This document shows, piece after piece, positions 7,483 through 24,669 of a stretch of DNA of 64,000 nucleotides (position 1 is its first letter; each line of letters begins with the position of its first letter). This DNA is from a virus. The stretch lies in IMG/VR virus record IMGVR_UViG_3300047558_000077, positions 32,001-96,000 of that record. The stretch is one strand, 5' to 3'. The position numbers and the translations under genes are program-made. The notes beneath the pieces are model-generated. The model did not search any database. It was not told where the DNA came from and worked only from the letters and a program-made list of their open reading frames with translations.

Positions 7483-7489
7483 GAGGAAT

Positions 7490-7558
7490 ACTAAATAGAT
7501 GTAGGCCACGGTGCTACCAACACCTGCCTACCCTAACGCTATGAAGGAGCGCCAGCCT
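7490..7558 (+). promoter_or_regulatory. Late promoter plus structured RNA leader of the HNH endonuclease (copy 1)
   Basis: ACTAAATA then GTAGGC-CAC-GGTG-loop-CACC-T-GCCTAC, CTAA, CGCT-ATGAAGG-AGCG, CAGC; covaries with 23976-24044. Confidence 0.75.
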
Positions 7559-8172
7559 ATGTCTATTTATCGTCGGATCTATACAGAACATTTTGGTCCA
7601 ATTCCAAAGGGTTATCATATCCATCATAAAGATGGAAATCATTCTAATAATGATCCTTTGAATCTTGTTGCCATTGCGGCAAAAGAGCATTATGATATAC
7701 ATTTTAGTCAAGGAGACTATGGTGCCTGTTGGGCAATGTATCGCACAGGTCATATGACACTAACAAGTGAGGAACGATCCGCACTAGTTAGTAAGCAACA
7801 AAAGATGTTGTTAGAATCAAACAAACATCCTTTTCAAGATCAAAAAATCGTGAAAAGAACAGGCAGATTCATTTGGATAAAATATCTAAAAGAACACACC
7901 ATCTTCAATCAGGATCTATTCAAAGAATACAAAACGCCAAGAGGATTCTTGAAGGAACACACAACTTATTAGGTGAAAACAATCCGATTCACGAAAGAGT
8001 TGAAAAAGGTTTACACCAAGAGATGATGAAGAATGAGAATAAAAAACGATTGGCAAATGGGACACATAACTTTACCATGAAATGGATATGTCCAATATGC
8101 GGTAAAAGTGGAACCAACCAAACAAACTATAGTAGATGGCATGGTGATAGATGTAGGGAGAATATAAAATGA
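7559..8172 (+). pseudogene. HNH homing endonuclease split by a 1-nt frameshift in an A6 run (7842-7847)
   Basis: HIHHKDGNHSNNDPLNL HNH motif; adding one A joins it to the 7873-8172 frame with GTHNL/GTHNF repeats and a CPIC..H..C zinc finger. Confidence 0.75.
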
Positions 8173-8765
8173 TTATTGGTTTGGTAGGATTTATTGGTGC
8201 AGGTAAAGGTACGGTAGCAGATATTTTAGTAAGAGAACATGAATATCATAAGTTTAGTTTTGCTGATGCTCTAAAGGATGCCGTTGCCACAATCTTCACA
8301 TGGCCACGAGGTCTTCTAGAGGGTGACTCAAACGCTTCTAGAGCATTTCGTGAGCGTGTTGATCCGTGGTGGTCACATAAACTCGGCTATGAGGTTACTC
8401 CACGGCTCATTCTACAAAAGATGGGTACCGAAGCATGTCGGCACGGAATCGCAGATAACATCTGGATTGCCGCATTAGAGAAACGCATTCATGGATATGA
8501 TGATGTGGTTATCTCCGATGTTCGTTTTCCAAACGAAATCGATTTTGTTCGGAGTGCCGGTGGTATCATAGTTCAGGTCAATAGAGGTAATGCACCCACA
8601 AAAGAAGAACTATCCAAAATGCATATATCGGAGACAGCATGGAACTATGTTGTGCCAGATTACATCATAGATAATGATGGTTCATTACAGGAACTGAAAG
8701 ATAAGATAAAAATAGTCTTGACAGTAGAACAAAAACCTACTACAATATTTCATCATCCGGTATGA
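8169..8765 (+). CDS. Deoxynucleoside monophosphate kinase (T4 gp1-like)
   Basis: GFIGAGKGT P-loop, SFADALK, TPRLILQKMGTE, ISDVRFPNE, HISE. Confidence 0.9.
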   Translation: MIIGLVGFIGAGKGTVADILVREHEYHKFSFADALKDAVATIFTWPRGLLEGDSNASRAFRERVDPWWSHKLGYEVTPRLILQKMGTEACRHGIADNIWIAALEKRIHGYDDVVISDVRFPNEIDFVRSAGGIIVQVNRGNAPTKEELSKMHISETAWNYVVPDYIIDNDGSLQELKDKIKIVLTVEQKPTTIFHHPV

Positions 8766-8778
8766 TAAGGAGAATATA

Positions 8779-9432
8779 ATGAAGCTAAGTGAGAATACAC
8801 TATCCGTCCTAAAGAACTTTGCCACGATCAATAGTGGTGTTGTTTTAAATGCAGGCAAGATTCAAAAAACAATCTCACCTGAGAAGTCTATTCTAGTTGA
8901 AGCAACACTTGATGATGACATTCCAACACCATTTGGAATTTACGATCTAAATCGGTTCTTGGGCAATCTAACAACACTAAAGAATCCTGAATTGACCTTT
9001 AATAATGAATCCGTTACTCTAGATGATGGAGAGTTTTCATTCGATTATCATGCTTGTTCTGCTAATCTTATTATCACTCCTCCAAATAAGGATATTATGT
9101 TGCAAACGATTGATGTTACATTCTCTCTTCCTAATGTGATTCTACAGAAGCTACTTAAAGTTGCCACCATGAACGGTCTACCTAATCTCTCTGTTGTAGG
9201 TAAAAATGGTGAGTTGCTACTTCGTATTCACGAAAAGGCAAACGATACATCTAACAGTGGAACTATGAAGATTGGTGAGTATGCGGGTCAGGACTTCACT
9301 GCTACATTCAACACAGAGAATCTAAAGCTATTGTCTGATGACTACACCGTAGAAATCCAGAAAGGTGCTTTTGCGAAGTTTGTGAATGCCGCCGGCAATC
9401 TAAAGTATTTCGTTGCTCTGGAGACAAAGTAA
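8779..9432 (+). CDS. gp45: Sliding clamp
   Basis: MKLSENTLSVLKNFATIN, FGIYDLNRFL; own promoter TTGACA 8718 / TACAAT 8741. Confidence 0.93.
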   Translation: MKLSENTLSVLKNFATINSGVVLNAGKIQKTISPEKSILVEATLDDDIPTPFGIYDLNRFLGNLTTLKNPELTFNNESVTLDDGEFSFDYHACSANLIITPPNKDIMLQTIDVTFSLPNVILQKLLKVATMNGLPNLSVVGKNGELLLRIHEKANDTSNSGTMKIGEYAGQDFTATFNTENLKLLSDDYTVEIQKGAFAKFVNAAGNLKYFVALETK

Positions 9433-9601
9433 TGTCCATGTTTTCTAGAATATATTTTGGCGGAATATTTCTACTATTCTTATCACTAGGATTGATTGCA
9501 TATCAAGACTATACAGAGAATAGAAAGTGTGAAGATGCTGGTGGCATCTATGGTGGCCACGACATGTGTGTGAATCCGGCAGCAATCATTGAGGTAGACT
9601 A

Positions 9602-9898
9602 ATGAGTATGATGGGACATAATCAGCAACAGCGTTCGGTTCAGGGACTAACCGAAGAAGAACGCAAGGTCTTTCGCAAGGCTATTATGGAGTTGAATGAC
9701 TCCATGACTCGTGTTGGTGCCGAGCGAGAACTACAGAAAGAGACTATCAATGAACTAAGTGATAAACTGGATATTGATAAGAAACTCATTCGCCGTATGG
9801 CACGCACATACTTCAAGGCAAACTTCAACTCTGAGGTTCAGGAGAACACAGACTTTGAAGAGTTTTACACCACTGTGATGGAGAAGACACAACTATGA
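9602..9898 (+). CDS. dsbA: T4 DsbA-like dsDNA-binding protein
   Basis: Size and LDIDKKLIRRMARTYFKANF..EEFY pattern resemble T4 DsbA. Confidence 0.6.
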   Translation: MSMMGHNQQQRSVQGLTEEERKVFRKAIMELNDSMTRVGAERELQKETINELSDKLDIDKKLIRRMARTYFKANFNSEVQENTDFEEFYTTVMEKTQL

Positions 9899-10049
9899 TG
9901 GCGCTTATCTTTGAGTTGCTAAGTGTAGTAAACTTTATAACTGCATCCTACTATTGGATTATGGATCACGATGATATCAATCGCTGGTTGTTTCTTCTTC
10001 TAACATCTATTATAATGCAACTTAGCGCATCTCGTTATGAGGAAAATGA

Positions 10050-10988
10050 ATGAGCAATGACTTCCTTTGGGTAGAAAAGTATCGTCCTCACAAGATCGAG
10101 GACTGTGTTCTTCCTGATCGTATCAAACAGGCATTTCAAGAATATGTGAATAAGGGGGAGATTCCAAATCTCCTTCTTTCTGGGCCCGCTGGTTGTGGTA
10201 AAACTACCGCAGCCATGGCTATGTGTGATGAAATCGGTTGTAACTATCTTTTCATCAACTCCTCAGAAGAAAGAGGCATTGATGTTCTAAGAACAAAGGT
10301 CGTAGGTTATGCGTCGACCGTATCGCTTACTGGTGGTCGTAAGGTTATCATTCTAGACGAAGCCGACGGCCTGACACCAGATACGCAAGATGCTCTTAGA
10401 GGTGTTATTGAGAAGTTTGCTTCCAACTGTTCTTTCATCTTCACATGTAACTTCAAGGCAAAGATCAAAGACGCTATTCATTCTAGATGCTCCGTCGTTG
10501 ACTTTACCTTGAAGTCTACTGAAAAGCCTGCTATGGCTGCTAAGATGTTCAAGCGTATTGAACAGATTCTAAAAATCGAGAGTGTAGATTATGACAAACA
10601 AGTTCTTGCCAAAGTTGTCGAAAAGTATTTCCCAGACTATCGTAGGACTCTTAATGAACTACAACGGTATTCTGTTGCTGGAAGCATTGATGCTGGTCTT
10701 GCTGCTCAACTTGACAGCGTTCGCAGCCTTAACGATCTAATCAAGTCTCTCAAAGATAAAGACTTTACGGCTATGCGTAAGTGGGTGGTTCTAAACTCTG
10801 ACATTGATCCTTCACGCATTTATCGTTCGGTGTATGATAATCTAAATCAGTATCTAAAGCCAGAGTCCATTCCCGCTGCGGTTGTAACGCTTGCTAAGTA
10901 TCAGTATCAGTCCGCCTTTGTTGCTGATCAGGAACTAAACTTGGTTGCTTGTCTGACGGAAATCATGGTTGAGTGTGAGGTGAAGTAA
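10050..10988 (+). CDS. gp44: Clamp loader large subunit
   Basis: LWVEKYRP, GPAGCGKTT, ILDEAD, SRC. Confidence 0.95.
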   Translation: MSNDFLWVEKYRPHKIEDCVLPDRIKQAFQEYVNKGEIPNLLLSGPAGCGKTTAAMAMCDEIGCNYLFINSSEERGIDVLRTKVVGYASTVSLTGGRKVIILDEADGLTPDTQDALRGVIEKFASNCSFIFTCNFKAKIKDAIHSRCSVVDFTLKSTEKPAMAAKMFKRIEQILKIESVDYDKQVLAKVVEKYFPDYRRTLNELQRYSVAGSIDAGLAAQLDSVRSLNDLIKSLKDKDFTAMRKWVVLNSDIDPSRIYRSVYDNLNQYLKPESIPAAVVTLAKYQYQSAFVADQELNLVACLTEIMVECEVK

Positions 10989-11479
10989 TGGCTAAAATGG
11001 ATTGGAGTAAAGCGAATCATTCAAATAGTTTAGAATTGGGTTCTAAATCATCTTTTGAGGCTAGAAAAGCGAAAGAACTCAAACAAATTGTAGATTTACA
11101 AGAAGAGAATGTGGGAAAATATAAGAAGTCTTATGTTCAAGAAACATTCGATAATAGTCCTTTTCAGACAACCGAAGAATTTGAAAAGTCAATAGTAAAA
11201 TCCATAAAAGAAGAACAAGAAAAAGAACTCAATGGATCAAAAATCAATGGACATGTAAAGTTAACTGGAGGTAAGTATAGACATTTCAACTATGATGATG
11301 TTTGGAATGCCGATCCTGATTACATCCTTTGGTTATTCTGGAATACACCACATGACTTTATTAGACAACAGATATTGAGGTCTGTGCCTATTACTGAAAA
11401 TGTTGGTATGTATTTCAAGAAGATCGAGATGCCTACCGTAAAGAAACTTGCCGTTCAACCTACATGGTGGCAATATTGA
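10988..11479 (+). CDS. Hypothetical protein inserted between gp44 and gp62
   Basis: Coupled stop/start; GGKYRH...DPDYILWL resembles exonuclease X C-terminal-like modules. Confidence 0.5.
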   Translation: MAKMDWSKANHSNSLELGSKSSFEARKAKELKQIVDLQEENVGKYKKSYVQETFDNSPFQTTEEFEKSIVKSIKEEQEKELNGSKINGHVKLTGGKYRHFNYDDVWNADPDYILWLFWNTPHDFIRQQILRSVPITENVGMYFKKIEMPTVKKLAVQPTWWQY

Positions 11480-11892
11480 CTGATCTATTCAAAGATGTCA
11501 TTCCATCCATTCTACAGACTAAGAAGAATGTTCTGGAGAATGAAAAAGACTATAGTGCTTTCGTGGTGAATCGGGCCCTCTCGTTTCACTACGATTGCGT
11601 TTTACAAGTCAATGAGATGAACCAGTATCCAGGTTTGCCTGCTAATATGCAATATCACTATTTGCTAAATAGCATTAGAGGCTATAAACGCCCTTTTAGA
11701 AAATGGGAAAAGCGTGAAACCATTGAGGACTTGGAAGCCGTAAAAGAGTATTACAACTACTCTAACGAAAAGGCCAAAGAAGCATTGGTTTTGCTAAACG
11801 CTACCCAGTTAGAACAAATAAGAAAAGAACTAAACAAAGGTGGCATAAATGACAGCAAACCTAGAAGACTTCGTGGAAGTAAGACTTCCTGA
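11464..11892 (+). CDS. gp62: Clamp loader small subunit
   Basis: YSAFVVNRALS, NEMN, VKEYYNYSNEKAKEAL, KGG; position before regA; true start may be TTG 11476. Confidence 0.9.
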   Translation: MVAILTDLFKDVIPSILQTKKNVLENEKDYSAFVVNRALSFHYDCVLQVNEMNQYPGLPANMQYHYLLNSIRGYKRPFRKWEKRETIEDLEAVKEYYNYSNEKAKEALVLLNATQLEQIRKELNKGGINDSKPRRLRGSKTS

Positions 11893-12262
11893 TCCTCAAG
11901 CCTTCTTGAAAGTGAAGGAGACTTTGACTCGTATTGGTGTAGCATCTAAGAAAGATAAAACTCTCTATCAGTCATGTCATATATTACATAAGCAGGGTCA
12001 TTATTACTTGGTACACTTCAAAGAGATGTTTATGTTGGACGGTAAGCCAACAGACTTCTCCGAAGAAGATCGTGGCAGAAGAAACACGATTGCTAATCTA
12101 TTAGCAGAATGGGGTCTAGTCACGCTAGTCGATAAAACTAAATCACAAGAGCCACTAACACCTCTAAACCGCATCAAGATAATCTCTTATGGTGAGAAAG
12201 GTGAGTGGAATCTAGTCGCCAAGTATTCTCTTGGTAAGAAAAGATTTTCAGATACAGAATAG
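11849..12262 (+). CDS. regA: Translational repressor RegA (T4 type)
   Basis: FLKVKETLTRIGVAS, LYQSCHILHKQG, VHFKEMF, RRNTIANLL. Confidence 0.95.
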   Translation: MTANLEDFVEVRLPDPQAFLKVKETLTRIGVASKKDKTLYQSCHILHKQGHYYLVHFKEMFMLDGKPTDFSEEDRGRRNTIANLLAEWGLVTLVDKTKSQEPLTPLNRIKIISYGEKGEWNLVAKYSLGKKRFSDTE

Positions 12263-12276
12263 AAAGTGAGTTTGTT

Positions 12277-12885
12277 ATGACTACATTGAAGATTTGGAAA
12301 ACACATCCCGATATTCAAATACCAAAGCACCAGACCACACAGTCTGCTTGCTTTGATCTAGCTTTTCAAGGTGCCGGCAAAAGAGAGTATAAAGGCTATT
12401 CGCATATGAATAAGCCTTTCTCTCGCCTACTTTCAGGATCTATCACAATCGCTCCTGGTGATCGTGTTCTAATTCCAACTGGTTGCATCATGGATATTCC
12501 AGAAGGATATTCGGTTCGTCTTCATGCTCGTTCTGGAACATCTCTAAAGCAGGGACTTGTTCTAGCTAATGCGGAAGGTGTCATTGATTCTGACTATGTT
12601 GAAGAAGTGTTTATCATGCTATGGAACATTTCTGGTAACGCTGTTACGATTAACAACGGTGATCGTATTGCACAGGCAGAACTTGTGAAGAATGAGGAAT
12701 ACACAATTGAGCAAACACCAGCCCGTCCTTTGCCCAGAACTAATCGCACAGGCGGATTTGGTTCTACAGGAATCACATCAAAAGATGATATGATTCTAAT
12801 AAATATACCACAAACTTTGGTTGTCGAGAAAGTTGAGGAACCTGTCGTGAAGCGTGGTAGAGGAAGACCGAGGAAGAATGCCTAA
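12277..12885 (+). CDS. dut: Trimeric dUTPase with C-terminal AT-hook
   Basis: ACFDL, ARSG, GVIDSDY, GDRIAQ, RTGGFGSTG; tail KRGRGRPRK. Confidence 0.92.
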   Translation: MTTLKIWKTHPDIQIPKHQTTQSACFDLAFQGAGKREYKGYSHMNKPFSRLLSGSITIAPGDRVLIPTGCIMDIPEGYSVRLHARSGTSLKQGLVLANAEGVIDSDYVEEVFIMLWNISGNAVTINNGDRIAQAELVKNEEYTIEQTPARPLPRTNRTGGFGSTGITSKDDMILINIPQTLVVEKVEEPVVKRGRGRPRKNA

Positions 12886-13420
12886 AGCACATAGAATTGG
12901 TGATCAAAGAATGTGCGGCGCTACTACCACAAGCGCCGGATTGAACACCAACGTCTTTGTCAATGGTATGTTAGCCGCTGTTGCCGGTGACCGTAACGAT
13001 CATAATAATCTAGGTGCATTGATATCATCATCACCTGGTACCATATTGATTAATGGTGTTCCTATGATCGCATCTATCATGGATAATTCCTCACCAGATC
13101 AGATTGGATTAATCACACACGTTACAGGACTTCCTACACCAGCAACAGGTTCACCAAACGTAAATCTATATGGAGGTTCCGGATCGTTTGCGGGTGGACT
13201 AGGTTCATTTGGCGTATCCGGACTTCCTAATGTGGGCGAGCTTTTATCATTTGCTGGTAATATTGTAGGTCAAGTATATCGAACTGCAAATCAAGGAAGC
13301 AACTCTGGTATGCTGGCGATGAACAACATAACATCAAACACACAACCAACCACAGGATCTACAGTTACAGGAGTCACAACAGGGAGAACATTCACGTTTT
13401 CCTCATATTATACATCTTGA
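12878..13420 (+). CDS. PAAR-like spike-tip protein with C-terminal extension
   Basis: KAHRIGD, VFVNGMLAAVAGD, ILINGVP, TGSPNV repeats. Confidence 0.7.
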   Translation: MPKAHRIGDQRMCGATTTSAGLNTNVFVNGMLAAVAGDRNDHNNLGALISSSPGTILINGVPMIASIMDNSSPDQIGLITHVTGLPTPATGSPNVNLYGGSGSFAGGLGSFGVSGLPNVGELLSFAGNIVGQVYRTANQGSNSGMLAMNNITSNTQPTTGSTVTGVTTGRTFTFSSYYTS

Positions 13421-13451
13421 CAACAGTATAGAGTTTACTATATAATATAAC

Positions 13452-13504
13452 AATGATAGCCGAAAGGTATCATTCCTTATAATCTCGCTGAAAAGGAGAA
13501 ACAC
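13452..13504 (+). promoter_or_regulatory. ROSE-like RNA thermometer in the hsp20 5' UTR
   Basis: 5' hairpin AATGATA..TATCATT, then TCTCGCT-GAAA-AGGAGA with a bulged G opposite the SD. Confidence 0.65.
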
Positions 13505-14044: not shown

Positions 14045-14106
14045 GACTGACATGGCCGAGGCCTCTGCCGCAAGGTACGCCTCGGTCCTCTTTATATGAT
14101 GTTACT

Positions 14107-14415
14107 ATGGAGCATGTGATGAAAAAACTCATTCTATTATTCTGTCTTATTCCATCTATCTCACTAGCCGAAGGCTTCGAATGTAGCAAACATGACGGTA
14201 ATGTTGTGTGTAAGGCTAAAGAAAATGGTGTTGCGGTAAACTCTATTTCAATTAATGGTGGTGAATGTGCTTCTCCTTATGATGCTAAGATATATCATAA
14301 GGTAATGAAAAAGGGCGACAAGTTCACCGTTCCTGGTTCTAAAGATTGTTTCTATGTTAGATCGGTGCATATAAATACGCACGACGGTGAAACACATCGC
14401 CATAATGCCATGTGA
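14107..14415 (+). CDS. Small secreted Cys-containing protein
   Basis: Signal peptide MKKLILLFCLIPSISLA; four Cys in the mature part. Confidence 0.55.
   Translation: MEHVMKKLILLFCLIPSISLAEGFECSKHDGNVVCKAKENGVAVNSISINGGECASPYDAKIYHKVMKKGDKFTVPGSKDCFYVRSVHINTHDGETHRHNAM
14370..14377 (+). promoter_or_regulatory. T4-type late promoter ahead of the glycosylation island
   Basis: Exact TATAAATA ~45 nt upstream of the GT2 start. Confidence 0.6.
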
Positions 14416-14422
14416 GGATAGT

Positions 14423-15163
14423 ATGAAACTAGTGATTGAAAAACCCGTTACAGTTATCACACCTACAATCGGTTCCCCAAAACTTATTGACGCTATTGAG
14501 TCTGTAAAGAATCAGACTTACAAGTGCAATCATTTGATTGTCGTTGACGGTTCTGAGCATCTATCAGATGCTAGGTCTATATTCCATCGTGATACCAACT
14601 ATGTCGTTTCTCCAGAGAACACAGGAAAGACAGGTGGCAACTTCTATGGTCATCGTATCTATGCTGCTTATCCACATCTAATCAATTCAGATTACATTCT
14701 GTTCCTTGACGAGGACAACTGGTATGAACCAGATCATGTTGCCTCACTAATCGAAACAATCGAGAAGAAAAATCTAGATTTCTCCTATTCGCTTCGAAAG
14801 ATTTTCTCACCTGATAAGAAGTATCTTTGCGATGATAATTGTGAAAGTCTTGGTAAGTGGCCGATCTTTATGTCTCGCAGTTCTCCACATGGTCCTCAGT
14901 TTCTAATCGACACATCTTCCTTCTGCTTCAAGCGAGAGTTTATTCAAAAGACTTGTCATTTCTGGCATTCTGGATGGGGTGGCGATAGACGATTTTTATA
15001 CTCGGTAAAAGATAATGCTAACTACGATACAAACGGTAAGCATACTCTCTGCTATCGTCTAGATGGTAATCCCAATTCAGTAACACGAGAATTTTTTGAA
15101 CAAGGTAACAAGACACAAGAAGCATATTATGGAGGAGCGAAATATCCATGGCTAAGGACTTGA
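14423..15163 (+). CDS. Glycosyltransferase family 2
   Basis: VTVITPT, AIESVKNQTY, IVVDG, YILFLDEDN. Confidence 0.85.
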   Translation: MKLVIEKPVTVITPTIGSPKLIDAIESVKNQTYKCNHLIVVDGSEHLSDARSIFHRDTNYVVSPENTGKTGGNFYGHRIYAAYPHLINSDYILFLDEDNWYEPDHVASLIETIEKKNLDFSYSLRKIFSPDKKYLCDDNCESLGKWPIFMSRSSPHGPQFLIDTSSFCFKREFIQKTCHFWHSGWGGDRRFLYSVKDNANYDTNGKHTLCYRLDGNPNSVTREFFEQGNKTQEAYYGGAKYPWLRT

Positions 15164-16047
15164 TTATAGGTGGAGCGGCAGGTTACAATTGGGATCAATT
15201 GAAATACTGGGTGAACTCCATCAACAAAACAGGATTTAAAGGTGATATTGTTCTAGTAGCAACAGACATGTCAGGTGAAACCGTAAAGAAGCTGGTAGAG
15301 AACAATGTAAAAGTATATGCATATGGTAAGCGTAATGAAAGTGGCGGAATAGAAAAGAGTGCAAACGGTATTCCGCCGCATGTTGAACGATTCATTTTCA
15401 TTTGGGATTATCTACGTAAGAACAAAGACGACTATCGATTTGTAGTTGTCACGGATACGAGAGACGTTATCTTTCAGAAAGATCCAACAGAATATCTGGA
15501 ACAAAATTTATTGTTTGGAGCAGCCTCTATCGTATGTGCGTCAGAAGGACTAGCATACAAAGATGAACCATGGGGCAGTAAGAACTTACTTGACACATTT
15601 GGTCCATTAGTATACGATGAACTTAAAGATAACTTGATATACAATGTAGGCACAATCGCTGGTTTTTACGAAGAAGTGAGAGACCTTATATTGCAGATAT
15701 TCTTTCAGTCAGTCAATCGTCCTATTCCTATTGTTGATCAGGCTGTGTTCAACTTTATCATTAGCATGAGCACATACAATCTAGAAGTGTTGAGAACAAA
15801 CAATCAGTCTGCATGGGCTGTTCAATTAGGCACAACACTAGAAGCGGTCAAGGCAGGTGCCGGTGATATTGGACAGATTGTCAGACAAGATCCATCTAAA
15901 CTTGAAGAATATATAAAAGCGTATCAAGATAAACAGCCTACAATTGATAATGAACTTGTGATGGCTGATCATGTTCCTTTTACAATCGTTCACCAGTGGG
16001 ATCGTGTTCCTGCTATCAAAGAATTGGTAATGAAAAACTATGCATAA
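15148..16047 (+). CDS. GT-A-like nucleotide-sugar transferase
   Basis: VTDTRDVIFQ (DxxD), NVGTIAG, DQAVFN, IVHQWDR. Confidence 0.65.
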   Translation: MAKDLIIGGAAGYNWDQLKYWVNSINKTGFKGDIVLVATDMSGETVKKLVENNVKVYAYGKRNESGGIEKSANGIPPHVERFIFIWDYLRKNKDDYRFVVVTDTRDVIFQKDPTEYLEQNLLFGAASIVCASEGLAYKDEPWGSKNLLDTFGPLVYDELKDNLIYNVGTIAGFYEEVRDLILQIFFQSVNRPIPIVDQAVFNFIISMSTYNLEVLRTNNQSAWAVQLGTTLEAVKAGAGDIGQIVRQDPSKLEEYIKAYQDKQPTIDNELVMADHVPFTIVHQWDRVPAIKELVMKNYA

Positions 16048-16894
16048 GTTGAGATTAGGTTTCGCTGACACATTCGATGGTGCCAAAGAATACTTTACAC
16101 ATCTTTTATCAAAACGTTTTGAGGTAGTTCGGGATGATGTTCATCCTGACTATCTTATCTTTGGTGATAGAAACTTTGGTGAAAGCAATCTAAGGTATCA
16201 AAATTGCGTTCGTATCTTCTACACAGGTGAGAACCAACGTCCTATTGATTATCGCTGCAACTATGCAATCTCATTTGATCATCCTACAGATAGTCGGATG
16301 TTTAGACTTCCTCTATATCTAATCTATGAGTATGATCATAAGATTTGGCAGAATAGAGAAGCAAGACATGAGGATGATTTTGACAATAAGAAGTTCTGTT
16401 CCTTTGTTGTCAAGAATCCTGGTTGCAAGTATCGCAATGACTACTTCAATATTCTTTCTAATATTGCTCAAGTGGATTCTGCTGGTCCTTTGTTCAATAA
16501 CATGCCTGACGGATGGCGACCAGAAACTGTTTCTGACAAAGTAAAGTTCATGAGCAACTACAAATTCAATCTTTGTTTCGAAAATAGTTCTTATCCTGGA
16601 TATTGCACAGAAAAGCTATTTGAGGCTTTGTGTGCTAAGACTGTTCCGATTTATTGGGGTAGTCCAACAGCCGCACTAGATTTCAATCCTAGAGCGTTTC
16701 TCAATCGTTATGATTATTCTAGTGACCAGGCTTTCTTTGATGCTATCGTGAGACTACATACTAACAAGGATGCATATAATCAAATGTATCTACAGCCAAT
16801 GTTTAGGGATGATGAGTTTGTTAGAAACTTTAATCCTGATAACTTCCTAGATTGGTTTCAACAAAATGTTTATCAAGGTGTGATCAACAAATGA
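16040..16894 (+). CDS. GT10 alpha-1,3/4-fucosyltransferase-like protein
   Basis: GT10 motif YKFNLCFENSSYPGYCTEKL...VPIYWG; YTGEN. Confidence 0.85.
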   Translation: MHKLRLGFADTFDGAKEYFTHLLSKRFEVVRDDVHPDYLIFGDRNFGESNLRYQNCVRIFYTGENQRPIDYRCNYAISFDHPTDSRMFRLPLYLIYEYDHKIWQNREARHEDDFDNKKFCSFVVKNPGCKYRNDYFNILSNIAQVDSAGPLFNNMPDGWRPETVSDKVKFMSNYKFNLCFENSSYPGYCTEKLFEALCAKTVPIYWGSPTAALDFNPRAFLNRYDYSSDQAFFDAIVRLHTNKDAYNQMYLQPMFRDDEFVRNFNPDNFLDWFQQNVYQGVINK

Positions 16895-17619
16895 ATAAAG
16901 CTCTAATCATTACTCCCACAGGTCGTTCAATCTATCACCACGAAGATTATGACAAAGACAATCACTGGCGCTTTACAAAGCCAGAGAGAACATATGAAAC
17001 ATGTGTGGTGGTCTATAATGACTTTCAGCCAGAGCCAGGAACATATGACTATATCATTCGTCGTAAAGGTCTAAAGTGGAATCTCGTTCCTGAGGTTTCT
17101 AAGATTATCAACTGGCAGGACTACGACTACATTGGTGTGTGGGATGATGACTATGCTACAGATATTCAATCTATCAATAAGGCTCTTGCATATGCTCGGC
17201 GCTATGACTTTAGATTGTTTCAACAAGCAACAACCTCATTTCAAACTTACGATTGTCTAAAGCACAATCCAGAGTTTGCTTTCACGGAAACAAACTTTAT
17301 TGAGTTAGGTGTTCCATTCTTTCGTAATGATATCTATCGCAAAGTTCTTCGCTTTCTTGAGGACTACCGTTATGAGAAGTCTGATTGGGGAATTGATAAA
17401 GTTCTTTGTTACTATCTACAGGCATCGGCTCATGTTGTCCATGATACAACAGTTAGACACATGCTTCCAGATGAAAGCACCTATAATAAAGAAGATGGCT
17501 TTAGAGAAATGGAATATCTAATGCGTGACTTCTTTCCCAAGTATATGAAAGAGAACTTTGGATTAGAATATCAGTATACAGATGTTCAACAAGTGATAAG
17601 GGCTTATAAACATGGATAA
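16891..17619 (+). CDS. DUF707-like glycosyltransferase
   Basis: GLKW, YDYIGVWDDD, TNFIELGVPFF, WGID. Confidence 0.65.
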   Translation: MNKALIITPTGRSIYHHEDYDKDNHWRFTKPERTYETCVVVYNDFQPEPGTYDYIIRRKGLKWNLVPEVSKIINWQDYDYIGVWDDDYATDIQSINKALAYARRYDFRLFQQATTSFQTYDCLKHNPEFAFTETNFIELGVPFFRNDIYRKVLRFLEDYRYEKSDWGIDKVLCYYLQASAHVVHDTTVRHMLPDESTYNKEDGFREMEYLMRDFFPKYMKENFGLEYQYTDVQQVIRAYKHG

Positions 17620-18412
17620 TATGACAAGATACATCAACTGGATGGAAGTATCAGATCAGTTTAGAAAAAGTCTTCCTTTCAATCACGTTATCATTGATGA
17701 CTTTTTTCTACCGCATATTGCAGAACAGTTAGCTAACGAGTTTCCTGATTATAATGATCCGGCTCTTGGCTATTACAATAATGCCATCGAGAACAAGAAG
17801 GTCTTTAACAAGTGGGATAAGTTTCCGAAGTTAACATATCAGGCATTTACTATGCTTGGTCGTCCTAATTTTTTGTTTCATATTAGAGGTCTTATCGGCA
17901 ATCCTAACAACACCGAACTATGGATGGACTATGGATTGAATGGTGGTGGTTGGCACATGCACACCAAAGGCGGTAAGAACAATGTGCATCTTGACTACAA
18001 CATTCATCCTAAGTTAGGTGAACAACGCAAACTAAACATCATCGTATACATGACTCCTAACTGGAAGTCGGAATGGGAAGGTGGTCTAGAACTATGGTCA
18101 CATGATAATGTAACTCGTAGGCCAAAGGATCTGGTTAAGACAGTTGAAAACAAATTCAATCGTGCTGTTATTTTCGATACTACACAGAATAGCTGGCATG
18201 GATTGCCTAAAGAACTAAAGTGTCCTGATGGTGTTGTTCGTAAGTCTCTTGCTGCTTATTACGTTCAACCTGCACCAGAAGGTGCTGATCCTCGTGGCAA
18301 GGCTCTATTTGCTCCTACAAAGGAACAAGAAGGTAATCCAGAAATCGAACAACTTATCCGTGAACGCTCGAATGTGGCAACTGCCGATAAGTTCCATGCA
18401 GGTGACAAGTAA
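17612..18412 (+). CDS. 2OG-Fe(II) oxygenase
   Basis: PFNHVIIDDF, HLD, GGLELW, FNRAVIF, SWHG, RKS. Confidence 0.85.
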   Translation: MDNMTRYINWMEVSDQFRKSLPFNHVIIDDFFLPHIAEQLANEFPDYNDPALGYYNNAIENKKVFNKWDKFPKLTYQAFTMLGRPNFLFHIRGLIGNPNNTELWMDYGLNGGGWHMHTKGGKNNVHLDYNIHPKLGEQRKLNIIVYMTPNWKSEWEGGLELWSHDNVTRRPKDLVKTVENKFNRAVIFDTTQNSWHGLPKELKCPDGVVRKSLAAYYVQPAPEGADPRGKALFAPTKEQEGNPEIEQLIRERSNVATADKFHAGDK

Positions 18413-19122
18413 TGGAAGAAATAGATGTAGTATTCTTTATCAATAGTGCTATGAATGTCACTGGTCGTTCCCTCTACTCTAACGATGTTAGATGGGAACA
18501 GACACAGGAAACGATTTTATCTATTGACAAACAGGTACCAAATAATATAAAATACTTAATTGATGGTTCATTCCTACCAATTGAGGAATACAAACTTAAT
18601 TGGTTGAAAGACCATAATGTTCGTGTAGCTCTAACTGGTCATATTCCAGGTATTACAGAGATATCAAAGAACATCGCACAGTATGGTATTGGTAATAGTA
18701 TTGCAGAGACTCGTTCAATGTTCATGTTTGTGGATCACTTTCTACAGTCTGAATATGGAAACATCAAAGCAAAGCGTATATGTAAGTTATCTGGTAGGTA
18801 CAAGATAAATGAAAACTTCAAGTGGGATGATCCTAACTTTGAAAATAAGTATGTCTTCGTGAAGCATCATGCGTCAAATAGTCCTGTGAAAGAACAACTT
18901 GGTCTAACTGGATTGTTTGTCGTGCGTTGCTGGCATATGGATTATGCTCTACTACATAACTACAGAGAAGTCATTCTTAGCATCGCTAACGATTGTGCCA
19001 ATCTCGGTATCGATGCAGAGAACTCTTATTATAAAAACATTCCTAAAGATTTACTTTATGAAGTGGAAAAGATTGGCGTAGAAGGTTATGTCTCACCCGT
19101 GGGAGTCTATGAAAATGAGTAA
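18412..19122 (+). CDS. Hypothetical protein, possibly glycosyltransferase-associated
   Basis: KLSGRY motif; translationally coupled within the sugar island. Confidence 0.5.
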   Translation: MEEIDVVFFINSAMNVTGRSLYSNDVRWEQTQETILSIDKQVPNNIKYLIDGSFLPIEEYKLNWLKDHNVRVALTGHIPGITEISKNIAQYGIGNSIAETRSMFMFVDHFLQSEYGNIKAKRICKLSGRYKINENFKWDDPNFENKYVFVKHHASNSPVKEQLGLTGLFVVRCWHMDYALLHNYREVILSIANDCANLGIDAENSYYKNIPKDLLYEVEKIGVEGYVSPVGVYENE

Positions 19123-20161
19123 AACACTATTGATTACAGGTGGTGCTGGGTTTATCGGTCACCACGTTATTGACTTGTTCCTACAGAAAACTGATTGGAA
19201 CATTGTCTCACTAGATCGCCTAGATTACTCTGGCAATCTAAATCGTCTTGATGATGTTGTGCGGCGCTATCCTGTGGAAACTCGTAAGCGTGTCAAGGTT
19301 GTATATGGTGATCTTCGTGCAGAAGTCACAGCATTACAGCAAAACTTTATTGGTGATGTTGATTACATACTTCACATGGCTGCGTCGTCACACGTTGACC
19401 GCTCTATTGAAGATCCAATGTCATTCGTTATGGACAATGTTGTTGGTACAGTCAACATTCTAAACTTTGCCCGCAAGTGTAAGAACCTCAAGCGGTTCAT
19501 CTATTTCAGCACAGATGAAGTTTTCGGTCCTGCACCAGGTACTATTACATATGGCGAGCGTGATCGCTATAACTCAACTAATCCTTATTCAGCATCTAAG
19601 GCGGCTGGTGAAGAAATGTGTGTTTCCTTCGAGAACACATACAAGCTACCTATCTTCATTACACATACAATGAACGTCTTTGGACAGCGACAGCATCCAG
19701 AGAAGTATATTCCTATGTGTATTCGTAAAGTTCGTAATGAAGAGACTGTTACTATTCATTCCGATCCTTCTAAGACTACACCTGGTTCACGCTTCTATAT
19801 TCATGCCGCTGACGTTGCTGATGCCATGTATTTTCTATTGCATCTAACACCAGAGCAAGAAGCAAAAGTTCATGAGCCTGATTATGGTGGTGCCAAGTGT
19901 CCAAAGTTCAATGTAGTTGGTAAAGAAGAAATCAACAATCTTGAACTTGCAGAGTATATTGCACAAGCAGAAGGTAAGATTCTAAACTTTGAAATGGTTG
20001 ACTTCCATTCTTCACGTCCAGGTCATGATCTTCGATATGGTCTATCGGGTGAGTATATGAAGTCTCTTGGTTGGGAACCAAAGTATACTCTTCGTGATCG
20101 TATCAAGGAAGTAGTTGATTGGTCGCTTGCTAACCCAGAATGGATCGAGGTGACAGAATGA
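19115..20161 (+). CDS. NDP-glucose 4,6-dehydratase (RmlB-like SDR)
   Basis: TGGAGFIG, HMAASSHVDRS, STDEVFG, YSASK, RPGHDLRY. Confidence 0.88.
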   Translation: MSKTLLITGGAGFIGHHVIDLFLQKTDWNIVSLDRLDYSGNLNRLDDVVRRYPVETRKRVKVVYGDLRAEVTALQQNFIGDVDYILHMAASSHVDRSIEDPMSFVMDNVVGTVNILNFARKCKNLKRFIYFSTDEVFGPAPGTITYGERDRYNSTNPYSASKAAGEEMCVSFENTYKLPIFITHTMNVFGQRQHPEKYIPMCIRKVRNEETVTIHSDPSKTTPGSRFYIHAADVADAMYFLLHLTPEQEAKVHEPDYGGAKCPKFNVVGKEEINNLELAEYIAQAEGKILNFEMVDFHSSRPGHDLRYGLSGEYMKSLGWEPKYTLRDRIKEVVDWSLANPEWIEVTE

Positions 20162-20724
20162 GTGTAACATATAACTTTTACGAGCCACTGAAAGACCCAC
20201 AATGGATATCAGGAAAAGATATTCTTCCTCTACTAGCAGACTTTAAGAATCCTGTTGGTATTGAAATTGGTGTTGATGAGGCACCAACAAGTTGGTTCTT
20301 TCTAAAGAATAGACCAGACCTGAAACTATTCGGTGTTGATCCGTTTCAGGCATATCAAGATTGGTATCCTGAAGGTTATATCAGTCAGCGTCAACAGGAT
20401 GAAAAGTATGAGAACATGCGTCGTCGTACCGCAGAGTTTGGTGATCGATGGAAACATTATCGTTTAACTTCTGATGATGCTGTTCCTCTATTTACAGATG
20501 ATTCATTCGACTTTATCTTTATTGACGGTCTGCATGAGTATGAACAGGTCCTAAAGGACTGTAAGAACTATTGGCCTAAGATCAAGAAGGGTGGTGTATT
20601 CGCAGGGCATGACTATCGTGTTATTGAAGGTGTCGGTCGTGCTGTTGATGAATTTGCTGCTACAGTAGGCGCAACGCCTATTCATCTACCAGAACAAGAT
20701 GCTTGGTACTGGATAAAGGAGTAA
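20158..20724 (+). CDS. Class I SAM-dependent methyltransferase (O-methyltransferase-like)
   Basis: IEIGV, GVDPF, FDFIFIDGLH, KKGGVFAGHDY. Confidence 0.85.
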   Translation: MSVTYNFYEPLKDPQWISGKDILPLLADFKNPVGIEIGVDEAPTSWFFLKNRPDLKLFGVDPFQAYQDWYPEGYISQRQQDEKYENMRRRTAEFGDRWKHYRLTSDDAVPLFTDDSFDFIFIDGLHEYEQVLKDCKNYWPKIKKGGVFAGHDYRVIEGVGRAVDEFAATVGATPIHLPEQDAWYWIKE

Positions 20725-20727
20725 ACT

Positions 20728-21948
20728 ATGGATTGGGAATGTCGTCCGATTACAGAATGTATTGCATGTGGTTCAAGCGATTTGGTTCCTGTGTTGGATC
20801 TCAATTCTCAACCATTAGCAAACTCATATAAGAAAGATAAACTAGAACAACAACCAGAGTATCCTCTAGCAATCAATCGCTGTAAACATTGTTATCATGT
20901 TCAACTAACGCATCAAGTAAATCCAAAACTAATGTTCACGGATTATGCTTATGTGTCAGGTACAGCTAAAACGTCGCTAGACTATTTTGATTGGCTAGTT
21001 GATCAAATAGTAAGAAAATACGGCTCTACACCAGAGTCAGTTCTAGATATCGGATGCAATGACGGTAGCTTTCTAAACGCATGGGGTGGCACGGGCACCG
21101 TTACGTTTGGTGTTGATCCTGCTGAAAACTTGCATCCGATATCTTCTAAACATCATCGTGTTCATTGTGGCTTCTTTACAGGTAAAGAGTTTGGTGACAA
21201 AAGATTTGACGTTATTACATGTCTAAATGCATTCGCTCACAACGCAGATCAGTTATCATTACTAAAGAATGTGGCGACACGTATGCATGAAGATACGTTA
21301 TTGTTTTGTTCCGTGTCTCAGGCTAATATGATATTAAATGGTGAGTTTGATACAATCTATCATGAGCACCTATCATTCTATAACATCAAATCTGCAAGAG
21401 CCTTGTGTAAACGAGCAGGGCTAAATTTGATTGATGTTATCAAGCACAGCATTCATGGTGATAGTTATATCTTTGTTATCTCGAAAGTGAAAGAAGCAAA
21501 AGTCTATATCGAGTCATTGATTCTAGAAGAAGAGAAGATGGGTCTTTATGATCCTGAAACCTATGATGAGTATGCTGAAAAGTGTTATTTCATTGCGGAT
21601 AAGTTTGCAGAAACGATCAGAGGTTATCGTGCATTAGGTGTCACTGTTATTGGTTACGGTGCTCCTGCCAAGGGCAATACACTAATGAACTTTGCTAATG
21701 AAGGTCCAGACTTTATTGTTGATGATAATCCTTTAAAGCAACTCACATTTACTCCTGGTATGTCTGTGCCAATCTATTCACCTTCATACATGACGCTAAA
21801 CTATTTTGAAACGAAACGTGTTTGCTTTGTTCCGCTTGCTTGGAACTTCTATGATGAAATTGTTGCTAACATAAGAAAGATTAGACCAGCACATACACAT
21901 AAGGATATCTTCGTGCGTTACTTCCCAAAGTTTGAAATCAATGAATAG
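20728..21948 (+). CDS. NDP-sugar C-methyltransferase (NovU/TcaB9-like)
   Basis: N-terminal CxxC..CxxC, YAYVS, LDIGCNDG, DTIYHEH, GYGAPAKG, VDDNPLKQ, LAWNF. Confidence 0.88.
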   Translation: MDWECRPITECIACGSSDLVPVLDLNSQPLANSYKKDKLEQQPEYPLAINRCKHCYHVQLTHQVNPKLMFTDYAYVSGTAKTSLDYFDWLVDQIVRKYGSTPESVLDIGCNDGSFLNAWGGTGTVTFGVDPAENLHPISSKHHRVHCGFFTGKEFGDKRFDVITCLNAFAHNADQLSLLKNVATRMHEDTLLFCSVSQANMILNGEFDTIYHEHLSFYNIKSARALCKRAGLNLIDVIKHSIHGDSYIFVISKVKEAKVYIESLILEEEKMGLYDPETYDEYAEKCYFIADKFAETIRGYRALGVTVIGYGAPAKGNTLMNFANEGPDFIVDDNPLKQLTFTPGMSVPIYSPSYMTLNYFETKRVCFVPLAWNFYDEIVANIRKIRPAHTHKDIFVRYFPKFEINE

Positions 21949-22726
21949 AGTTGCCTACTATCACATTCATCTAACAGATGATCCTCTAATCTGGACTTCT
22001 ATCTTTCTTGAACAAATGAAATGTATAGAGGATTCTGGATTGATTCAGAATCTAAATAAGATGCGAGTTACTTGCATTGCACAGGATGATGACCGCATCC
22101 AGATGTTTGTTCGTCTATGCGAATCCTATAACATTCCTATGGAACTAACAGCGATCAAGAACCCATTTGACAATGATCGTGACATGCTCTATAATAGAAA
22201 CACTAATAAGTCATGCACGGAAGACATTACGTTAAAGCGTATATGGGAAGATTGTAAAAAGGAAGATATGAAAGTTCTTTACTTTCATTCTAAAGGTTCT
22301 ACATCATATTCCACTAATGTCAATGTCAATAACATCGTCAAACATAAGGAATACTTTTACTGGCGTTCCTTTATGAATTGGGCTGTGTTGGAGCAATGGG
22401 CTTTTTGTGAGAACGCATTGGATAGATATGATATTGCTGGTGGTGACTATCATGAATTACCTTCCCCACATTTTTGCGGTAACTTCTGGTGGGCAACTTC
22501 GGATCATATCAAGCAATTGCCAGACCCACTAGATAAAGCATGGTGGCATGAATTACAAAAGAGGACAGATGATGCTTGGATCAAACAAGCACCAGTTAGA
22601 ATGTATGATGAAATGTGGATCGGTGCTAGAGAAGGTATCAAAGTATATAACGTGATTGATCTAAAGGGTAAGAACCCAGTCAATCAATGTTTATCTGAAT
22701 TAGACTGTGAGAGGCTTATGCAATGA
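21941..22726 (+). CDS. Glycosyltransferase-like hypothetical protein
   Basis: LYFHSKG and HFCGNFWWA motifs; island context. Confidence 0.55.
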   Translation: MNRVAYYHIHLTDDPLIWTSIFLEQMKCIEDSGLIQNLNKMRVTCIAQDDDRIQMFVRLCESYNIPMELTAIKNPFDNDRDMLYNRNTNKSCTEDITLKRIWEDCKKEDMKVLYFHSKGSTSYSTNVNVNNIVKHKEYFYWRSFMNWAVLEQWAFCENALDRYDIAGGDYHELPSPHFCGNFWWATSDHIKQLPDPLDKAWWHELQKRTDDAWIKQAPVRMYDEMWIGAREGIKVYNVIDLKGKNPVNQCLSELDCERLMQ

Positions 22727-23964
22727 AAGTAACAGTGATTGGTGCGGGAGGTCATGTTGGTCTTCCGTTTTCTCTTGTGGTAGCAGATGCGGGACATATC
22801 GTATATGGTGTTGACCTGAATGAAGAACTTATTCTAGCACTGAATAGTGGTATTGTGCCTTATATTGAACATGGCGCAGAAGAACTACTAGTAAAGCACA
22901 CATCAGAAGGTAACATCGTTTTCACTACCAACGCATCTATGATAAATGAATCAGATGTTGTTGCCATCATGCTTGGCACACCTGTTGACGAAGAGAACAA
23001 TCCACGACTAGATGATTTGTTTGACTTTGTTGATCATACTCTTATGCCTAATATGAAGAAAGATACGTTGGTGCTGTTAAGGTCAACAGTATCACCAGGC
23101 ACAACAGAAATACTTCGTGATCGTATTGAATCGATAACTGGATGGATAGAAGGTAAAGATTTTTATCTGGTGTTTGTTCCTGAAAGAGTTCTACAGACAA
23201 AAGGTATTGAAGAGACAGCAAATCTACCAGCATTGATTGGAGCATTTGGAGATAACTCATATTATAAGGCTAGAGAGTTTCTAGGAACATTCATCAAGGC
23301 ACCTATGTTTCTTCTAACACCAAGAGAAGCGGAGATCGGTAAACTTATGACGAATATGTTTCGTTATGTTACCTTTGCTCTTGCTAATGAGTTTTGGATG
23401 ATTGGAGAAAAGCAAGGTGTGGATATGCACCGTGTCATCCAAGCAGCAAATTATGGTTATGAAAGAAATGCTATTCCTCTACCAGGTCCTAATGTCGGCG
23501 GTCCATGTCTATTCAAAGATGGTAGATTTCTTCTATCAGACATACCGTTTGCTGATCTTATTCAGACCTCGTTCCATATCAATGAAGGTATGCCAGACTA
23601 CATCTTCAATCGCATCAAGGAGATGAATCCTAAGGTAAGATGTGTTTTGATTCTTGGTGCGACCTTCAAGAAGGACTGTGACGATACACGAAACAGTCTA
23701 TCATTCAAAATGAAGAAGGTATGTAAGAAGAATGGTGCCGAGGTGTATATGTGGGATGACTATATTCCGTGGCCAAAGGACAAGGATTTTCCATACAGAG
23801 AACATTTTGATGCTGTTATTGTAATGACACCTCATACAGGCACAGAAGCAAAGTGGCCGCTAAATGATTTCAATGATGATTGTATCATCGCAGATATCTG
23901 GAAGATGTATCCAGAAAGTAAACTAAGTAAGTCAGGCATTTATAGAGTTGGAGATATGTTGTAA
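22723..23964 (+). CDS. NDP-sugar 6-dehydrogenase (UDP-glucose/GDP-mannose dehydrogenase family)
   Basis: GAGGHVGLP, RSTVSPGTT, PERV, KLMTN, GPNVGGPCL, GATFK. Confidence 0.9.
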   Translation: MKVTVIGAGGHVGLPFSLVVADAGHIVYGVDLNEELILALNSGIVPYIEHGAEELLVKHTSEGNIVFTTNASMINESDVVAIMLGTPVDEENNPRLDDLFDFVDHTLMPNMKKDTLVLLRSTVSPGTTEILRDRIESITGWIEGKDFYLVFVPERVLQTKGIEETANLPALIGAFGDNSYYKAREFLGTFIKAPMFLLTPREAEIGKLMTNMFRYVTFALANEFWMIGEKQGVDMHRVIQAANYGYERNAIPLPGPNVGGPCLFKDGRFLLSDIPFADLIQTSFHINEGMPDYIFNRIKEMNPKVRCVLILGATFKKDCDDTRNSLSFKMKKVCKKNGAEVYMWDDYIPWPKDKDFPYREHFDAVIVMTPHTGTEAKWPLNDFNDDCIIADIWKMYPESKLSKSGIYRVGDML

Positions 23965-23975
23965 GGATCGGATTT

Positions 23976-24044
23976 ACTAAATAGTATTGTCCGTCACGGA
24001 GTTGGCGCTCCCACGGACTCTAATACTGTTTAGGAGTATCAGCA
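23976..24044 (+). promoter_or_regulatory. Late promoter plus structured RNA leader of the GIY-YIG-like endonuclease (copy 2)
   Basis: ACTAAATA then GTCCGT-CAC-GGAG-loop-CTCC-C-ACGGAC, CTAA, TACT-GTTTAGG-AGTA, CAGC. Confidence 0.75.
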
Positions 24045-24668
24045 ATGTTCTATATTTATGCCTATCTCAGGCAAGACAACACACCATATTATATCGGTAA
24101 AGGAAAAGGTCGTAGGGCTTGGACTAAGTATAAGGGAGAAGTGTATCCTCCTAAAGACAAAACTCGTGTGGTCATTATGGAAGATAATCTAACAGAACTT
24201 GGCGCTTTGGCTTTAGAAAGAAGATATATTCGTTGGTATGGACGTAAAGATAATGGCACAGGTATATTGAGAAATATGACAGATGGTGGTGACGGAACAA
24301 CAGGTATCATCAGAGACGAGGAATGGAGTAGAAAGCAAAGAGAGTCACAACCTAAAAAATTTGGTTTAGATAATCCATTCTATAACAAGCAGCACAATGT
24401 AGAAACAAAAAAGATAATGAGTATCAAAAAACAGGGTGAAAATCATCCTATGTTTGGAAAGAAACAAAGTAATACTACAATAGAAAGAAAAGTAAAGAAA
24501 CTATCAAAGAAGTGGATGATAACATTTCCAGATGGTCATAGTGAGATTATAAAGAACATAAAAGAGTTTTGTAGAGATAAAGATTTTGGTCCGAGCCAAC
24601 TATATAATGTCGCTTATGGAAATCAAAAATCTTGTCACGGATATAAATGTCAGAAAATGGAGAACTGA
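24045..24668 (+). mobile_element. Free-standing GIY-YIG-like homing endonuclease with NUMOD3-like repeats
   Basis: [32 protein letters not shown] and HPMFGKKQS repeats. Confidence 0.8.
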
Positions 24669-24669
24669 A

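Follow-up and report, generated by a model that had tools for sequence, protein, structure and literature searches.

We have found that two homing-endonuclease genes of an uncultured virus are each preceded by a short structured element, here called the head. Both heads lie within a stretch of 64,000 nucleotides (the window), bases 32001-96000 of a 172,364-bp uncultured virus record (IMG/VR IMGVR_UViG_3300047558_000077; 40.8% G+C). Each head carries two late-promoter-like boxes that face each other ~65-70 bp apart and, between them, conserved hairpins that fit the strand opposite the gene. From the sequence, we consider it probable, though by no means assured, that the head combines convergent late promoters, a conserved cis-antisense RNA that would restrain the nuclease, and a mask of the T4 type that would act in read-through transcripts.

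Copy A (7490-7561) and copy B (23976-24047) share one layout (Table 1) and were located where an earlier note on this DNA had placed them. In both, the promoter box CTAAATAG, predicted from its motif, stands 61 nucleotides (nt) from the ATG. The alignment of the two copies contains 14 pairs in three helices, six of them changed on both sides and none broken, in agreement with the note's count of about six compensatory changes; when the partner columns are shifted by 1-3 positions, pairing falls to 29-52%. The covariance model search for further homologues that the note had proposed gave only these two matches in the 172-kb genome and dozens in other viral contigs, so the likeness of the two copies is not due to chance. 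As the note also held, the genes downstream are unrelated homing endonucleases, namely an HNH_3 gene (PF13392) behind copy A and a GIY-like/NUMOD3 gene behind copy B.

Members of the family were gathered with plus-strand sequence patterns. The pattern derived from copies A and B matched 49 stretches in IMG/VR contigs, a second pattern without the promoter matched 87 viral stretches, and a third matched 43 viral stretches that form a more distant branch. At least 77 distinct versions of the head thus occur in uncultured phage contigs, and 77 versions, from source contigs of 4 to 333 kb, were aligned.

Covariation by itself is silent on which strand folds; it is the asymmetry between G.U and A.C pairs that tells. 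Of the 1381 cells in the minus-strand alignment (A4), 98.6% hold standard pairs; double changes occur at 14 of the 18 pairs, and the covariation score is 0.568, compared with 0.178 after shuffling (0/500). Read as plus-strand RNA, these pairs come to 88.6% standard. The minus strand has 145 G.U pairs versus 7 for the plus strand, or 36 versus 7 once the two near-invariant CUGG/UUAG wobble columns are set aside. RNAalifold returned exactly the same structure for the minus strand, and the minimum free energy (MFE) of the hairpins is -19.8 kcal/mol on the minus strand versus -15.0 on the plus strand, with the minus strand lower in 76/77 versions. On the minus strand only, CUGG or CUGA (the complement of CCAG or TCAG) pairs through G.U with UUAG (the complement of CTAA). 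These outer CTAA/CAG pairs extend the 4-bp stem P3 to an 8-bp antisense hairpin (hairpin A), and pair 24-50 beside them covaries (AU 35, GU 33, GC 6, UA 3). In copy A, the plus-strand version of hairpin A can pair only through its inner 4 bp. In the second hairpin (hairpin B), which is built from stems P1 and P2, all six P1 pairs and three of the four P2 pairs covary in the family, and the CAC bulge is near-invariant (CAC or CGC in 77/77 versions).

The conserved hairpins are therefore most likely RNA of the strand opposite the gene and not a gene-strand leader, to judge from the relatives. This overturns the fold proposed in the earlier note, which had been drawn on the gene strand. The CTAA and CAGC that it took for fixed unpaired bases form the outer four pairs of the antisense hairpin. 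Its P3 hairpin stands as a 4-bp pairing, but not as a structure occluding the Shine-Dalgarno sequence, since AGG lies in the loop and P3 is weak on the gene strand.

The source phage is a T4-like myovirus, with a DNA polymerase ~49% identical to Synechococcus myovirus polymerases, and the plus strand carries all genes of the region. The genome has 30 plus-strand and 3 minus-strand copies of CTAAATA, mostly just 5' of open reading frames (ORFs). Based on this skew and position, CTAAATA is very likely the late-promoter box of this phage, although the promoter is predicted. TAAATA is likewise depleted on the minus strand (25 versus 85). In T4, the late box TATAAATA occupies -13 to -6, with the transcription start (+1) six nt past the box (PMC1524935), and the late-promoter consensus of cyanophage S-PM2 is NATAAATA (PMC2984593).

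The second box of each head lies within the gene. Nearly all members begin with ATG-NNT-ATT-TAT (M-x-I-Y), after which the proteins diverge at once, and TATTTAT follows the ATG regardless of protein family. The GIY-like genes carry an extra MSIY(x3-8) ahead of their own YIYAYLR start. Among the 45 members that had not been selected on codons 2-4, the Ile codon is ATT in 39 and the Tyr codon is TAT in 43, versus 48% and 74% genome-wide; these fixed synonymous sites indicate that codons 2-4 are conserved at the nucleotide level. An x-Ile-Tyr motif of the protein was considered and rejected, because it stands ahead of GIY-like N-termini that are already complete, and its synonymous positions are fixed. 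On the minus strand, codons 2-4 read ATAAATA(G/A/T), which matches the late-promoter core of both T4 and S-PM2. This reverse box is kept in copies without a forward TAAATA (L163, L166, L174 and L005_1013). With +1 six nt past the reverse box, the predicted antisense start falls 0-5 nt before hairpin A, and in nearly all members the box stands exactly one promoter-to-start distance from that hairpin.

Because the inter-box hairpins are conserved in minus-strand RNA, a cis-antisense RNA of ~70-80 nt would most likely be the conserved product. By position, the predicted RNA covers the Shine-Dalgarno sequence in both copies and the AUG in copy B. Under the reading that we favor, each stretch would be the control head of a mobile homing-endonuclease cassette set between two overlapping phage genes. 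The antisense RNA would begin at the start codon or slightly ahead of it, from the ATAAATA box in codons 2-4, and would fold into an 8-bp 5' hairpin with the anti-Shine-Dalgarno CCU in its loop, followed by a bulged 10-bp hairpin and a U-rich 3' tail complementary to the forward promoter. Pairing with the leader of the endonuclease mRNA would prevent ribosomes from binding and hold nuclease output at a low level, much as IS10 RNA-OUT does; production of the RNA and its ends are predictions, and repression is proposed from complementarity only. In a second layer, read-through RNA would carry a copy of the forward box that may pair in copy A with the AUG and codons 2-4, and in copy B with the edge of the Shine-Dalgarno sequence, and transcripts begun at the late promoter would escape this mask, which is of the T4 I-TevI type.

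The second layer was evaluated by predicting RNA folds on the gene strand. Late transcripts with the predicted starts at 7503 and 23989 would be without the 5' arm of the outer helix (P0 in copy A, P0' in copy B). The P0' arm is predicted to pair with the linker, the 5' arm and loop of P3 and the first 2 nt of the Shine-Dalgarno sequence. The predicted energy needed to open the ribosome site of copy A is 18.6 kcal/mol in read-through RNA, 9.0 in the late transcript and 9.2 +/- 1.6 with shuffled upstream sequence. Over 33 members, the predicted values are 10.4 (read-through), 7.8 (shuffled upstream) and 6.4 kcal/mol (late), and 25/33 have a higher value for read-through than for the shuffle (p 1.7e-4). 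For the outer pairing, the plus strand is favored in 54 members versus 21, where a composition control predicts the opposite sign; this effect is concentrated in the CTAAATAG clade of the window copies. Cognate and non-cognate arms differ in outer-helix pairing by a weak signal (-5.36 versus -4.95, p 0.03). At column 17:91 of the promoter/codon pairing, G17 occurs with C91 in 24/31, whereas A17 shows roughly equal use of T, C, G and A as partner. Outside the window's clade, pairing therefore does not clearly maintain the outer-helix core. As modelled, the read-through mask appears strong for copy A and weak for copy B. The earlier note had reasoned that a structure lying downstream of the promoter needs some other trigger; the predicted pairing of promoter RNA with the start-codon region (A) or Shine-Dalgarno region (B) in read-through transcripts speaks against this, and the argument also overlooked the late-promoter-like box that codons 2-4 form on the opposite strand.

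Empty sites in relatives place both heads inside inserted DNA, and the idea that the leader moves with the endonucleases is thereby confirmed. In more than 25 relatives (up to 94% amino acid (aa) identity), homologues of the genes at 6619-7482 and 8169-8765 overlap (ATGA) or lie 0-6 nt apart, and the window exceeds them by 686 bases (7483-8168). At the second site, the uridine diphosphate (UDP)-glucose dehydrogenase and epimerase genes overlap (ATGA) in relatives L310, L311 and L334 (85-87% aa identity), and here the window has 705 extra bases, 23965-24669. Both inserts begin 7-11 nt 5' of the promoter box, and the 3' end of the insert supplies a new Shine-Dalgarno sequence to the downstream gene. 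Because the cassettes sit between genes that overlap in relatives, the downstream gene would need read-through transcription. A simple terminator scan of the window found no terminator on the plus strand at the heads, and no sigma-70-like site is present at the heads. P1/P2 was also considered as a plus-strand terminator and rejected, there being no U tract after it.

Other features of these sites were observed. Insertion occurred exactly at ATGA-type stop/start overlaps of coupled genes (7480-7483/8166-8171 and 23962-23965/24666-24672), and both cassettes recode the last few codons of the upstream gene. Contig L239 (3340-3870) carries, at the site that corresponds to window 7483-8168, a near-identical head and behind it a 151-aa ORF in which MSIY and the C-terminal DNA-binding part persist but the HNH nuclease domain is absent. 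The head is thus kept on degenerate endonuclease genes. The HNH gene of copy A itself seems split, with ORF 7559-7972 corresponding to positions 3-84 of phrog_12324 and an overlapping ORF in another frame (7873-8172) corresponding to positions 240-265. It is probably frameshifted, with its C-terminal part in the second ORF, and this could reflect a decaying gene, an assembly error or programmed frameshifting.

The ORFs behind the heads are small (137-234 aa) and homing-endonuclease-like, of at least six types: HNH_3, HNH_3+AP2, classic HNH+NUMOD3, GIY-YIG, GIY-like 'YIYAYLR..PYYIGKG' and NUMOD3-only remnants, with one case that matched none. According to the family model, the head precedes close homologues of both window endonucleases but not distant HNH homologues. 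The heads are mosaics, in that one P1/P2 module was seen with different P3 modules and different genes. A scan of the window against Rfam release 15 on both strands gave only transfer RNAs (tRNAs) at gathering scores and noise at the two heads (best E 3-8, 10-16 bits); no described family matches.

Several contigs carry two or three heads (window copies A and B; L030/L037, L039/L049, L036/L047, L033, L005, L151 and L162/L176), and in these the loops always differ and the P1 or P3 stems usually differ. Such divergence fits selection against cross-talk or recombination, and it could also be plain divergence. It is possible, though unlikely, that the heads are mutually orthogonal antisense RNAs acting in trans, each silencing its own kind of endonuclease, including on co-infecting phage. 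They would then provide copy-number control or a form of 'immunity' among competing homing endonucleases, and co-resident cassettes would be driven to diverge in stems and loops, as copies A and B do.

Several points weigh against an antisense RNA combined with a mask. The RNA is predicted from sequence, and megablast/blastn searches of 50,697 phage records with the two heads and the genes behind them found the element in no cultured phage. The simple terminator scan found no canonical terminator on the minus strand at the heads, and in the U-rich tail only 6.3 of 12 nt are U on average. In some members TATATAT or TATCTAT replaces TATTTAT. Every pair is Watson-Crick in both window copies, so the strand call rests on relatives; these were gathered by pattern and are not phylogenetically independent, which makes the p-values rough. 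The mask predicted for copy B is no stronger than shuffles (opening energy 7.6 versus 7.4 +/- 2.5 kcal/mol), and inverted promoter boxes are automatically complementary, so that part of the mask signal could be a by-product.

A head that works on the gene strand only, with a late promoter in a long-range mask helix, a 5' hairpin (P1/P2) that stabilizes the mRNA and no antisense RNA, is in our view unlikely. The scheme is documented for I-TevI, I-TevII, I-TevIII, segB and mobE (PMC2988022), and conserved hairpins with late promoters precede metagenomic endonucleases (PMC2677866). It would account for the predicted helices of 15 bp between promoter and start codon in copy A and 12 bp in copy B, for read-through RNA that is more closed than controls, for the plus-strand specificity of the outer helix and for the hairpins near +1 after other CTAAATA promoters (window 29869, 33493, 45539 and 50834). 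It leaves unexplained why inner-stem mismatches on the gene strand are almost all A.C (145 versus 7), why CTAA/CAG complementarity is limited to the minus strand, and why a late-promoter core is found at synonymous sites of codons 2-4 even without the forward box. The protein- or ligand-responsive switch that the earlier note proposed, a gene-strand leader with its conserved unpaired bases as binding site, appears very unlikely. The near-invariant bulge and the lack of a matching RNA family would suit it, but the other 'unpaired' bases (CTAA, CAG) are paired in the antisense fold, and on the gene strand the fold is weaker, with A.C tolerated and G.U not. Moreover, nothing points to a sensor: the structure consists of two plain hairpins with no junction or pocket, and the neighboring genes differ between the sites, so that no common metabolite is suggested.

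An element that acts as DNA, either a recombination point similar to the PeSL cassettes of T4-type phages or inverted-repeat DNA for the swapping of endonucleases, would make the RNA folds incidental. PeSLs do act as exchange points (PMC4122927), the heads are mosaic (shared P1/P2 with different P3 and genes), and one site holds an HNH gene in the window and a nuclease-less derivative in L239 behind near-identical heads. The P2 hairpin of copy B, GGAGTTGGCGCTCC (window 23998-24011), is also the exact reverse complement of the P2 hairpin GGAGCGCCAACTCC in L041/L014, as if inverted. Recombination, however, requires identity and not the compensatory changes by which 14/18 pairs stay paired, and a signal in duplex DNA would give no asymmetry of G.U and A.C between strands; we regard this explanation as quite unlikely. 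There is a similarly small chance that the minus-strand structure has another role, in which it terminates or insulates antisense transcription from downstream or stabilizes a longer antisense transcript. The structure does fit the minus strand, a U-rich stretch follows hairpin B, and a 225-nt antisense RNA, CfrI, is known to overlap an endonuclease gene in cyanophage S-PM2 (PMC2984593). However, every neighboring gene lies on the plus strand and the minus strand has few late boxes, so there would be little antisense transcription to terminate, and such a role does not account for a reverse box so precisely spaced from hairpin A.

Large phages carry homing endonucleases as their main selfish genes, and the restraint of these is known from few T4 examples (hairpin masks, autorepression). 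If true, a structured antisense RNA built into the first codons would add a widespread, IS10-like layer of control across endonuclease families. It would explain the same x-Ile-Tyr first codons in unrelated endonucleases and would constitute a compact, portable and late-timed silencing module.

Table 1. Features of the two heads, their genes and their cassettes (window positions; promoters, RNAs and outer helices are predicted)
Feature	Position	Strand	Details
Copy A promoter segment	7490-7497	+	ACTAAATA
Copy A forward late-promoter box	7491-7498	+	CTAAATAG; predicted sense +1 = 7503
Copy A P1	7501-7506 / 7526-7531		GTAGGC / GCCTAC
Copy A bulge	7507-7509		CAC
Copy A P2	7510-7513 / 7521-7524		GGTG / CACC
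Copy A linker	7533-7536		CTAA
Copy A P3	7537-7540 / 7548-7551		CGCT / AGCG; loop ends AGG
Copy A Shine-Dalgarno sequence	7545-7549	+	AGGAG; 9 nt 5' of ATG
Copy A CAGC	7553-7556		then ATG at 7559
Copy A hairpin B (P1+P2)	7501-7531	-	6 bp + 4 bp; 1-nt bulge; 3-nt bulge (GUG minus, CAC plus)
Copy A hairpin A	7533-7555	-	8-bp stem CUGGCGCU/AGCGUUAG, two G.U; 7-nt loop CCUUCAU with anti-Shine-Dalgarno
Copy A reverse late-promoter-like box	7563-7570	-	ATAAATAG (codons TCT ATT TAT); predicted antisense +1 = 7558
Copy A predicted cis-antisense RNA	7487-7558	-	~72 nt: 5' AGG, hairpin A, hairpin B, tail AUCUAUUUAGUAUU; putative ends
Copy A predicted helix P0	7493-7507 / 7556-7570	+	15 bp including 2 G.U; 3' arm spans AUG and codons 2-4
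HNH_3 endonuclease ORF	7559-7972	+	137 aa; PF13392, E 5e-13
Cassette A	7483-8168	+	head, HNH_3 gene, and tail giving Shine-Dalgarno sequence to downstream deoxynucleoside monophosphate (dNMP) kinase gene; from empty sites
Copy B promoter segment	23976-23983	+	ACTAAATA
Copy B forward late-promoter box	23977-23984	+	CTAAATAG; predicted sense +1 = 23989
Copy B P1	23989-23994 / 24013-24018		GTCCGT / ACGGAC
Copy B bulge	23995-23997		CAC
Copy B P2	23998-24001 / 24008-24011		GGAG / CTCC
Copy B linker	24020-24023		CTAA
Copy B P3	24024-24027 / 24035-24038
Copy B CAGC	24040-24043		then ATG at 24045
Copy B hairpin B	23989-24018	-	P1 GTCCGT/ACGGAC, P2 GGAG/CTCC
Copy B hairpin A	24020-24042	-	8-bp stem CUGAUACU/AGUAUUAG, one G.U; loop CCUAAAC (anti-Shine-Dalgarno)
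Copy B reverse late-promoter-like box	24052-24059	-	ATAAATAT (codons TAT ATT TAT); predicted antisense +1 = 24047
Copy B predicted cis-antisense RNA	23972-24047	-	~76 nt; fold z -2.8; putative ends
Copy B predicted helix P0'	23977-23988 / 24022-24033	+	12 bp including 1 G.U; MFE prediction
GIY-like/NUMOD3 endonuclease ORF	24045-24668	+	207 aa; YIYAYLR..PYYIGKG, NUMOD3
Cassette B	23965-24669	+	head and GIY-like/NUMOD3 gene; 3' end gives Shine-Dalgarno sequence to epimerase gene (ATG 24670)

Elsewhere in the window, a G+C-rich hairpin begins at about the predicted +1 of the CTAAATA boxes at 29868-29900, 33492-33520, 45538-45565 and 50833-50880, so a 5'-terminal hairpin seems to be a general trait of the late mRNAs of this phage. 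The 23 tRNA genes at 43119-51776 form a plus-strand cluster. A sugar-nucleotide pathway lies at 14400-28700 (UDP-glucose dehydrogenase at 22723-23964, an epimerase/dehydratase at 24670-25659, and neighbors), and a gene similar to acyl-coenzyme A dehydrogenases (26935-28683) was without a PHROG match.

The proposed arrangement resembles that of IS10/Tn10, in which RNA-OUT, a 69-nt antisense RNA whose promoter lies inside the 5' end of the transposase gene, blocks ribosome binding and can act in trans to control copy number (PMC5006887). In both, a gene of a selfish element has an opposite-strand promoter (here a promoter-like box) in its 5' end, and a short antisense RNA with a stable fold of its own (here a conserved predicted fold with 98.6% standard pairs) is complementary to the initiation region. 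The heads differ in that the target would be a phage homing endonuclease, both promoters are T4-type late boxes, and there are two hairpins with the anti-Shine-Dalgarno sequence in a loop. RNA-OUT and the heads, whose antisense RNA is a prediction, show no homology in sequence or structure.

In the masks of T-even phages (I-TevI, I-TevII, I-TevIII and segB) and of mobE in phage Aeh1, a late promoter lies in a hairpin that hides the ribosome site (PMC2988022). The heads share with them a late box just 5' of the ORF. They may also share a helix that needs sequence 5' of the late start and, judging from the gene overlaps in relatives, the location of the endonuclease gene within an earlier polycistronic unit. 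The T-even masks are single hairpins without a family-wide conserved fold, whereas in the heads the predicted helix encloses two further hairpins whose conservation fits the opposite strand, and a second promoter-like box points towards the first. Dassa et al. (2009) described conserved 5' hairpins with a late-promoter motif before free-standing endonucleases at 'fractured gene' loci in marine metagenomes (PMC2677866). Those loci are likewise environmental and phage-like, and their GIY-YIG and Vsr-like families share hairpins, two complementary motifs and a TATAAATA box. Compared by description, the hairpins were presented as sense-strand structures only, without strand analysis, antisense promoter or covariance model.

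One antisense RNA is known to overlap a phage endonuclease gene. This is CfrI of the T4-like cyanophage S-PM2, which was detected experimentally across the homing-endonuclease gene F-CphI (Millard et al. 2010, as described in PMC2984593 and PMC5931967). As given there, it differs from the heads in its length of ~225 nt and in linking the endonuclease gene to psbA. Covariance model R2, which matches the window copies at E 1e-16 and 1e-15, had no match at E<=1 in the S-PM2 genome (NC_006820), and CfrI is therefore not of the same RNA family. The PeSL cassettes consist of an early promoter and a terminator stem-loop (PMC2839356, PMC4122927). Similar to the heads, they are small, portable regulatory cassettes that recur before unrelated genes, and they serve as exchange points; the heads are set apart by their tie to endonucleases, their late-type boxes on both strands and their covarying stems.

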